A stretch of DNA of 64,000 bases from Escherichia coli. GTDB taxonomy: Bacteria; Pseudomonadota; Gammaproteobacteria; Enterobacterales; Enterobacteriaceae. The position numbers and the translations under genes are program-made. The notes under the pieces were generated by a model that saw only the letters and a program-made list of their open reading frames with translations, searched no databases and was not told the DNA's origin. This document shows, in pieces, positions 45,089-45,560 of this stretch (positions are counted from its first letter, which is position 1; each line of letters starts with the position of its first letter). Where the stretch lies: assembly GCF_045037415.1 (NCBI RefSeq), contig NZ_CP173438.1. One strand, 5' to 3'.

Positions 45089-45121
45089 TGTCTTTAAATC
45101 ACGACAATGGGTGGTTTGCCG

Positions 45122-45139
45122 TGTCGCTTTTTGGTGACA
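45122..45139. promoter_or_regulatory. GlrR (NtrC-family) activator site, TGTC-N10-GACA
   Basis: TGTCGCTTTTTGGTGACA about 170 bp upstream of the sigma-54 promoter. Confidence 0.65.
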
Positions 45140-45184
45140 CTTAACTCATTGATTTTAATATTATCTAATAAGTTTATCTTAAGT

Positions 45185-45202
45185 TGTCTCTTTTTAGCGA
45201 CA
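45185..45202. promoter_or_regulatory. GlrR activator site, TGTC-N10-GACA
   Basis: TGTCTCTTTTTAGCGACA about 105 bp upstream of the sigma-54 promoter. Confidence 0.65.
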
Positions 45203-45291
45203 CAGTGGCTGATTTACATTCAAATAGCGGAGAAGCCATAAACCCCTCAAAGCAGCGTATAATCAGTATGTTACCAAACTATTTTCTTTAT

Positions 45292-45307
45292 TGGCACAGT
45301 TACTGCA
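45292..45307 (+). promoter_or_regulatory. Sigma-54 promoter (-24 TGGCAC / -12 CTGCA) of glmY
   Basis: TGGCACAGTTACTGCA fits the GG-N10-GC sigma-54 consensus; an overlapping sigma-70-like TAATAG/TATAAT region is also present. Confidence 0.8.
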
Positions 45308-45318
45308 TAATAGTAAGC

Positions 45319-45502
45319 AGTGGCTCATTCACCGACTTATGTCAGCCCCTTCGGGACGTGCTACATAAAATTCGAATGACGCACAACAAGGTGCCTGCCG
45401 TCCAACTTCTGATATCAGCTTAGCTATATCAACCATCGGGCGAAACGTCGAGTTAGGCACCGCCTTATTCCATAACAAAGCCGGGTAATTCCCGGCTTTG
45501 TT
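45319..45502 (+). ncRNA. glmY: Small RNA GlmY (regulator of GlmZ/glmS)
   Basis: About 184 nt from roughly 12 nt downstream of the sigma-54 -12 element (AGTGGCTCATTCACC...) to the terminator AAAGCCGGGTAATTCCCGGCTTTGTTGT; position upstream of glrK matches the known locus. Confidence 0.8.
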
Positions 45503-45560
45503 GTATCTGAACTTCCCCTCGGTTAGCATCAGGCTATTCGCGTCTGACGAGAGTAACGCC

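Follow-up and report, generated by a model that had tools for sequence, protein, structure and literature searches.

The question raised by this locus is what is encoded in the 575 bp that separate purL from the sensor kinase gene qseE (also glrK) in a 64-kb stretch of an Escherichia coli chromosome, hereafter the window. The stop codon of purL (41098–44985, + strand; RefSeq annotation and NCBIfam NF003672, 2272.9 bits) ends at 44985, and the mapped RefSeq annotation places the TTG start of qseE/glrK at 45561, leaving a gap at 44986–45560 of exactly the length given in a preliminary description of this DNA. The answer reached here is that positions 45319–45502 almost certainly encode the small RNA GlmY, which acts as the decoy in the GlmY/GlmZ/RapZ circuit. 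The locus is an ordinary one, already known and well characterized in E. coli K-12.

The genes on both sides agree with this assignment. The DNA of qseE/glrK (45561–46988, + strand) is 100% identical to the RefSeq gene for QseE/GlrK (WP_001296299.1), and the NCBIfam matches of its product are to generic histidine-kinase families. It is followed on the same strand by the lipoprotein gene qseG (47153–47866; RefSeq annotation and NCBIfam equivalog NF007997, 358.5 bits, cut-off 234) and by glrR/qseF (47856–49190; RefSeq annotation and NCBIfam GlrR equivalog NF011695, 978.4 bits, cut-off 763). The product of the latter, a sigma-54-dependent response regulator, is the activator of the glmY promoter, so that GlrK and GlrR are indeed encoded downstream as had been proposed. 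In the RefSeq record with 100% identity, glnB comes next after glrR. The gene order purL-glmY-qseE(glrK)-qseG-qseF(glrR) is that of K-12. Of 5426 complete E. coli assemblies, 5425 contain the 585-bp stretch 44986–45570, nearly all of them in one copy, and it is 100% identical in many complete genomes.

The Infernal scan with the Rfam model GlmY_tke1 (RF00128), which the preliminary description had suggested as a check, gave a match at 45319–45466 with 147.2 bits (gathering score 33, E = 7.6e-33), spanning the full model (positions 1–163 of 163). The second suggested check, the comparison with the 184-nt K-12 MG1655 ncRNA b4441, gave a column-for-column alignment to 45319–45502 on the + strand, with 182 of 184 bases identical in the pairwise alignment. 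The proposed transcription unit of roughly 184 nt coincides exactly with the K-12 annotation. The broader interval assigned to the locus, 45100–45505, covers glmY; it cuts the distal activator site described below and overshoots the annotated 3′ end by 3 nt. The two substitutions in the RNA, T for A at 45372 and T for G at 45420 (GlmY positions 54 and 102), are both at unpaired positions, that is, in internal or hairpin loops of the Rfam structure line. The minimum free energy (MFE) of the 184-nt RNA is −64.2 kcal/mol, with z = −4.79 relative to dinucleotide shuffles.

In K-12 the active species of GlmY is a processed form of 148 nt (PMC4152352). The corresponding segment of the window, 45319–45466 (+ strand), is the one covered by the full-length RF00128 match and would form the two stem-loop domains that mimic GlmZ. 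The processing region GCCUUAU (45462–45468) and the terminator are identical to those of K-12. Judging from K-12, the 184-nt transcript of the window strain would likewise be processed to about 148 nt, and its 5′ end, its 3′ processing and the use made of the promoters would probably be the same. Nothing that contradicts the GlmY explanation was found in this analysis.

GlmY and GlmZ (SraJ, RF00083) belong to one Rfam clan (CL00011), they align over both stem-loop domains, and their similar 5′ stem-loop domains are recognized by RapZ. Moreover, a lower-scoring overlapping match of the same clan is suppressed in the scans. An RNA at this position could in principle be GlmZ, or a GlmZ-like paralogue, and act as a base-pairing activator of glmS instead of a decoy. 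Four observations leave this reading with a negligible probability and effectively refute it. The best clan member is GlmY, at the score given above. The locus is purL-glmY-glrK, whereas glmZ of K-12 adjoins hemY. The glmZ gene of E. coli has a plain sigma-70 promoter only, without GlrR or IHF sites (PMC3045617). Finally, GlmZ carries a linker that pairs 21–41 nt upstream of the glmS AUG, a pairing that GlmY does not make (PMC4152352) and that has no counterpart in the RNA of the window.

The last point was addressed with duplexes restricted to the linkers. The GlmZ linker recovers its published site (leader positions 124–144, 21–41 nt before the glmS AUG), and the 12-nt linker of GlmY showed no pairing with this GlmZ target site in the glmS leader, in a linker-only comparison whose energy statistics are weak. 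Full-length RNAduplex calculations of GlmY and GlmZ against the glmS leader were discarded, because intermolecular pairing of the whole molecules is forced and the energies become meaningless; GlmZ itself scored worse than its own shuffles.

A different complementarity was noticed for the GlmY linker (45462–45473, GCCUUAUUCCAU). With CAUGGGAUGAGGA of the K-12 glmU–glmS intergenic RNA, 11 consecutive pairs are possible, two of them G-U. The target lies 23–35 nt after the glmU stop codon, near the site at which RNase E processes the glmUS transcript. The pairing energy of −15.1 kcal/mol is equalled by 1 of 500 shuffles and by 5 of 694 random genomic pieces (0.7%), in a comparison made post hoc. 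If the pairing were real, unprocessed GlmY might contact the glmUS mRNA directly, besides its role as a decoy of RapZ. Such a contact is considered extremely unlikely, and the 11-bp complementarity is probably due to chance: the target is inside a stable hairpin of the leader, most of the linker segment is missing from the active 148-nt form, and published genetics put GlmY upstream of GlmZ.

Several open reading frames overlap the locus and can be read mechanically, namely one of 79 aa (45184–45423, + strand), ORF44 (45107–45241, + strand), one of 66 aa (45329–45529, − strand) and a 5′ extension of glrK from 45498 (+ strand). An alternative reading is that the interval encodes a small protein, or a longer GlrK, and that the RNA features are secondary. 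The integrity of each ORF was examined in orthologous regions, an intact ORF being one with the start codon kept, no frameshift and no internal stop. Among the matches listed, the 79-aa ORF is intact in 0 of 115 regions and ORF44 in 0 of 112. The 66-aa ORF and the glrK extension are kept in some of the matches listed (10/116 and 12/119), mostly in close relatives, which in the case of the 66-aa ORF have at least 85% nucleotide identity. The length of GlmY varies from 148 to 171 nt across genera, with differences that are not multiples of three. NCBIfam gave no match for the three overlapping ORFs other than the glrK extension. In RefSeq and in K-12, glrK starts at the equivalent of 45561, and the qseE mRNA as published begins 25 nt before the start codon, downstream of 45498 (PMC6075780). 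A protein-coding origin of the interval has, in view of these data, scarcely any probability, and the earlier statements that the interval lacks plausible coding potential and that the ORF at 45184–45423 and the glrK extension should not be treated as coding both hold. The integrity test took the place of a tblastn search of the ORF products against the orthologous loci, which did not discriminate: an RNA conserved at the nucleotide level gives similar amino-acid sequences whichever frame is translated.

The locus matters for annotation only and adds nothing to the known picture. PGAP annotations of E. coli, for example that of the 100% identical SK1144 record, have no feature between purL and qseE, so that gene callers can put spurious ORFs such as 45184–45423 and 45329–45529 (− strand), or a glrK that is too long (from 45498), over this well-characterized RNA and the enhancer upstream of it. 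In RefSeq NZ_AP018784.2, which is 100% identical and was annotated by PGAP, the purL–qseE interval is devoid of any feature and Rfam gives glmY with 147 bits there; the curated K-12 record does annotate glmY.

Upstream of the RNA, the preliminary description had reported two perfect TGTC-N10-GACA sites. Both exist, and a third one had been missed. In order from distal to proximal, the sites on the + strand are ABS1 (45089–45106, TGTCTTTAAATCACGACA), ABS2 (45122–45139, TGTCGCTTTTTGGTGACA) and ABS3 (45185–45202, TGTCTCTTTTTAGCGACA), all of them exact matches of the motif. Counted from the transcription start (45319), their 5′ ends are at −230, −197 and −134. The reported positions of −105 and −170 do not refer to this start; they are distances from the TGGCAC element, for which the actual values are −107 and −170, with −203 for the third site. 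These are the only three exact matches in the 64-kb window. The chance expectation is 0.91, and three or more matches anywhere are seen in 4 of 100 shuffles. [quoted passage not shown] 2011, PMC3045617), and the sigma-54 promoter requires ABS2 and ABS3 but can do without ABS1 (PMC3045617). The motif matches, taken with this literature, suggest that the three sites of the window would also be bound by GlrR/QseF.

When one mismatch was allowed, 17 sites were found in the 64-kb window against 21 expected, and there was no enrichment of additional GlrR sites outside glmY. The rpoE-rse region is reported in the literature as a target of QseF and sigma-54, and no TGTC-N10-GACA with one mismatch or fewer is present in its vicinity.

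Two further elements that had been overlooked are sites for IHF. Exact matches to WATCARNNNNTTR are located at 45142–45154 (− strand, AATCAATGAGTTA) and 45261–45273 (+ strand, AATCAGTATGTTA), one on each side of ABS3. [quoted passage not shown] From its position, 45142–45154 probably corresponds to this distal site.

The sigma-54 promoter itself, TGGCAC-N5-CTGCA, is present as described, at 45292–45307 (+ strand), with one mismatch to TGGCAC-N5-TTGCW. Its GG is at −26/−25 and its GC at −14/−13 relative to +1 at 45319. The motif alone is not significant, since 6 matches with one mismatch or fewer occur in 64 kb and 3.3 are expected. In K-12 the glmY sigma-54 promoter was characterized experimentally (PMC3045617).

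A second promoter, also missed before, overlaps the first. The hexamer CATAAT at 45306–45311 (+ strand) is identical to the published sigma-70 −10 element, and its C is at the same time part of the GC in the sigma-54 −12 element. In K-12 this −10 overlaps the sigma-54 −12, and transcription from either promoter begins at the same nucleotide (PMC3045617; PMC4152352). The weak sigma-70 promoter gives basal expression of glmY (PMC4152352), and low expression persists without sigma-54 (PMC3045617, PMC4152352). For E. coli, the description of glmY as "sigma-54 dependent" is thus correct only in part: the sigma-54 promoter is there, together with the overlapping CATAAT. The window has the overlapping sigma-70 promoter that marks the Escherichia/Klebsiella/Salmonella subgroup, and from the sequence both promoters are placed so that they can serve the annotated start at 45319. 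A simple sigma-70 scan, whose rule requires a −35 match, did not find the published CATAAT promoter. Promoter-like matches of the same scan at 45134–45162 were dropped, as they fall within the enhancer region and have no support.

The region between purL and the enhancer has some features of its own. A REP-type palindrome (GCCCGGATGAGGCATTCACGCCGCATCCGGC) is located at 45009–45066, between the purL stop codon and the purL terminator. It gave a weak match to naRNA4 (RF02564), whose 22.5 bits fall short of the gathering score (59.5); this match was not retained, the element being a plain REP-type palindrome outside the glmY system. Eighteen nucleotides of this REP-like element (about 45018–45035) are absent from K-12 MG1655, so that it is complete here and truncated in K-12. 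The terminator hairpin of purL (45062–45083) and its T-run lead straight into ABS1, and no more than about 5 bp lie between the end of the purL transcription unit and the beginning of the glmY enhancer.

Other features were noticed elsewhere in the window. A complete rRNA operon occupies 5728–10745, with the 16S gene at 5728–7269, a tRNA at 7355–7427, the 23S gene at 7624–10527 and the 5S gene at 10630–10745, and its spacer contains a StyR-44 element (7508–7616). Further Rfam matches above the gathering score are RyfD (2592–2730, 125 bits), AsrC, the antisense RNA of rseC (28804–29635, − strand, 502 bits), the rncO leader (32418–32632, 256 bits) and the antitoxin RNA OhsC (36044–36120, − strand, 101 bits).

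At the 3′ end of glmY, the MFE fold contains the expected terminator, a hairpin at 45474–45502 (+ strand) with a 12-bp stem (AACAAAGCCGGG/CCCGGCUUUGUU) and the loop UAAUU. Its 3′ end is the annotated 3′ end of K-12 glmY. A simple terminator scan, which demands an uninterrupted T-run, did not flag this hairpin, because its U-run is interrupted (CUUUGUUGUAU) and lies partly inside the stem.

Such a terminator raises the possibility of read-through, by which glmY and qseEGF would form one operon in the window strain and GlrR would autoregulate its own synthesis. Cotranscription of glmY and qseEGF with autoregulation by GlrR is reported for Proteus mirabilis (PMC8745638). In K-12, on the other hand, qseEGF has its own weak sigma-70 promoter directly after glmY, and its mRNA begins 25 nt ahead of the qseE start codon (PMC6075780). 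Expression of qseE from lacZ fusions was indistinguishable with and without the glmY locus, and RT-PCR detected virtually no read-through from glmY into qseE (PMC6075780). The window is identical to K-12 from GlmY position 102 up to a point 3 nt ahead of the qseE start codon, with a single difference there. For the window strain, one common operon is accordingly judged very unlikely. Separate transcription of qseEGF would proceed from a weak sigma-70 promoter region at 45501–45536 (+ strand), with a putative start at about 45536; by our reading of the sequence, TTGTAT (45501–45506) and TAGCAT (45524–45529) are the candidate hexamers.

The mechanism in which this GlmY would take part is known from K-12 experiments, and its steps are extended to the window strain on the basis of 97–100% DNA identity. 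QseE, whose activity requires the lipoprotein QseG (PMC6075780), would be stimulated to autophosphorylate by RapZ that is free of glucosamine-6-phosphate (GlcN6P), which raises QseF~P and glmY transcription in K-12 (PMC7073468). QseF/GlrR~P would bind the three sites and, with the bending induced by IHF, activate the sigma-54 RNA polymerase at the glmY promoter, while the weak sigma-70 promoter would maintain a basal level of glmY from the same start nucleotide. Trimming from the 3′ end would shorten the 184-nt transcript to about 148 nt. In K-12 this form sequesters RapZ, the adaptor of RNase E, leaving GlmZ intact for the Hfq-aided activation of glmS (PMC4152352). At 99% identity to the K-12 RNA, the GlmY of the window may be expected to bind and sequester RapZ in the same way and to stabilize GlmZ (PMC4152352, PMC7073468). 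By mimicking GlmZ it would stop RapZ from handing GlmZ to RNase E, and the intact GlmZ, together with Hfq, would pair with the glmS leader and increase GlmS synthesis. RapZ bound by GlmY loses its ability to stimulate QseE (PMC7073468), and this would close a negative feedback loop. The transcription of qseEGF by way of its separate weak sigma-70 promoter, which directly follows the glmY terminator, and not by read-through, would be part of the same scheme. As a whole, the GlmY/GlmZ/RapZ circuit holds GlcN6P constant, and hence the supply of cell-envelope precursors.

The conservation of the locus was examined by scanning species-representative genomes with a GlmY-specific 28-nt pattern, which returned at least 120 loci. 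Those listed are from Photorhabdus, Yersinia, Serratia, Pectobacterium, Dickeya, Brenneria, Klebsiella, Citrobacter, Kluyvera, Kosakonia and other genera. Promoter positions derived from a fixed distance between pattern and start were unreliable in the orthologues, because the length of GlmY varies between genera, and positions were taken relative to the sigma-54 element instead. Among the matches listed, TGGCA-N7-TGC is at the expected distance in 111 of the 113 loci with enough upstream DNA, and 95 of these 111 have three TGTC-N10-GACA sites (one mismatch or fewer) with spacings of 32–33 and 63 bp. Within the same listed matches, a site with the spacing of ABS1 is kept in most orthologous loci, ABS2 is at −170 from TGGCA in close relatives and at an equivalent spacing in other genera, and the spacing of ABS3 is conserved. 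Of the 105 listed loci with enough downstream DNA, 104 have a GlrK homologue downstream, in the same orientation. As far as can be read from their sequences, about 110 listed loci of other Enterobacterales keep the promoter architecture, the gene order and the predicted RNA structure.

The structure was evaluated in an alignment of 37 nonredundant GlmY sequences of Enterobacterales (148–171 nt), in which pairs were counted for a six-helix structure obtained from RNAalifold and Rfam; the controls had their pairing partners slid by 1–3 columns. Standard pairs are formed by 97.9% of the cells in the 37 sequences, versus 28–44% in the slid controls. Compensatory changes on both sides were found for 8 pairs, versus 0–2 in the controls, in a set where variation in the 3′ domain is under-sampled, as the 28-nt search pattern is exact and lies inside this domain. 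Most pairs are invariant in the 37 sequences, which says nothing for or against the structure. The 5′ stem-loop and the second, branched domain of GlmY are both supported across species.

The glmY genes of Yersinia, Serratia and Photorhabdus have the same sigma-54 element, the same three sites (spaced by about 32–33 and 63 bp) and the same downstream qseE as the window. They differ in having TGCATTAT or TGCATTAA where the window has TGCATAAT (PMC3045617), and therefore lack the overlapping sigma-70 −10 and are sigma-54-only promoters. Their GlmY is also 10–20 nt longer than that of the window, because its apical loops are larger.

In comparison with K-12 glmY (b4441, formerly sroF/tke1; RF00128), the window has the same position between purL and glrK, the same 184-nt extent, the same dual sigma-54/sigma-70 promoter, three TGTC-N10-GACA sites and the IHF-consensus sites. 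The differences are the two unpaired positions of the RNA, a G for C at promoter position −2 (45317), and a handful of substitutions in the promoter region, three of them in N10 spacers (one in ABS1 and two in ABS2). The G at −2 and the changes in the ABS1 and ABS2 spacers are differences in sequence from K-12, which may or may not alter expression. Farther upstream, the REP-like palindrome between the purL stop codon and the purL terminator is 18 nt longer in the window than in K-12. The TGTC and GACA half-sites and the sigma-54, sigma-70 and IHF motifs are all unchanged between the two.
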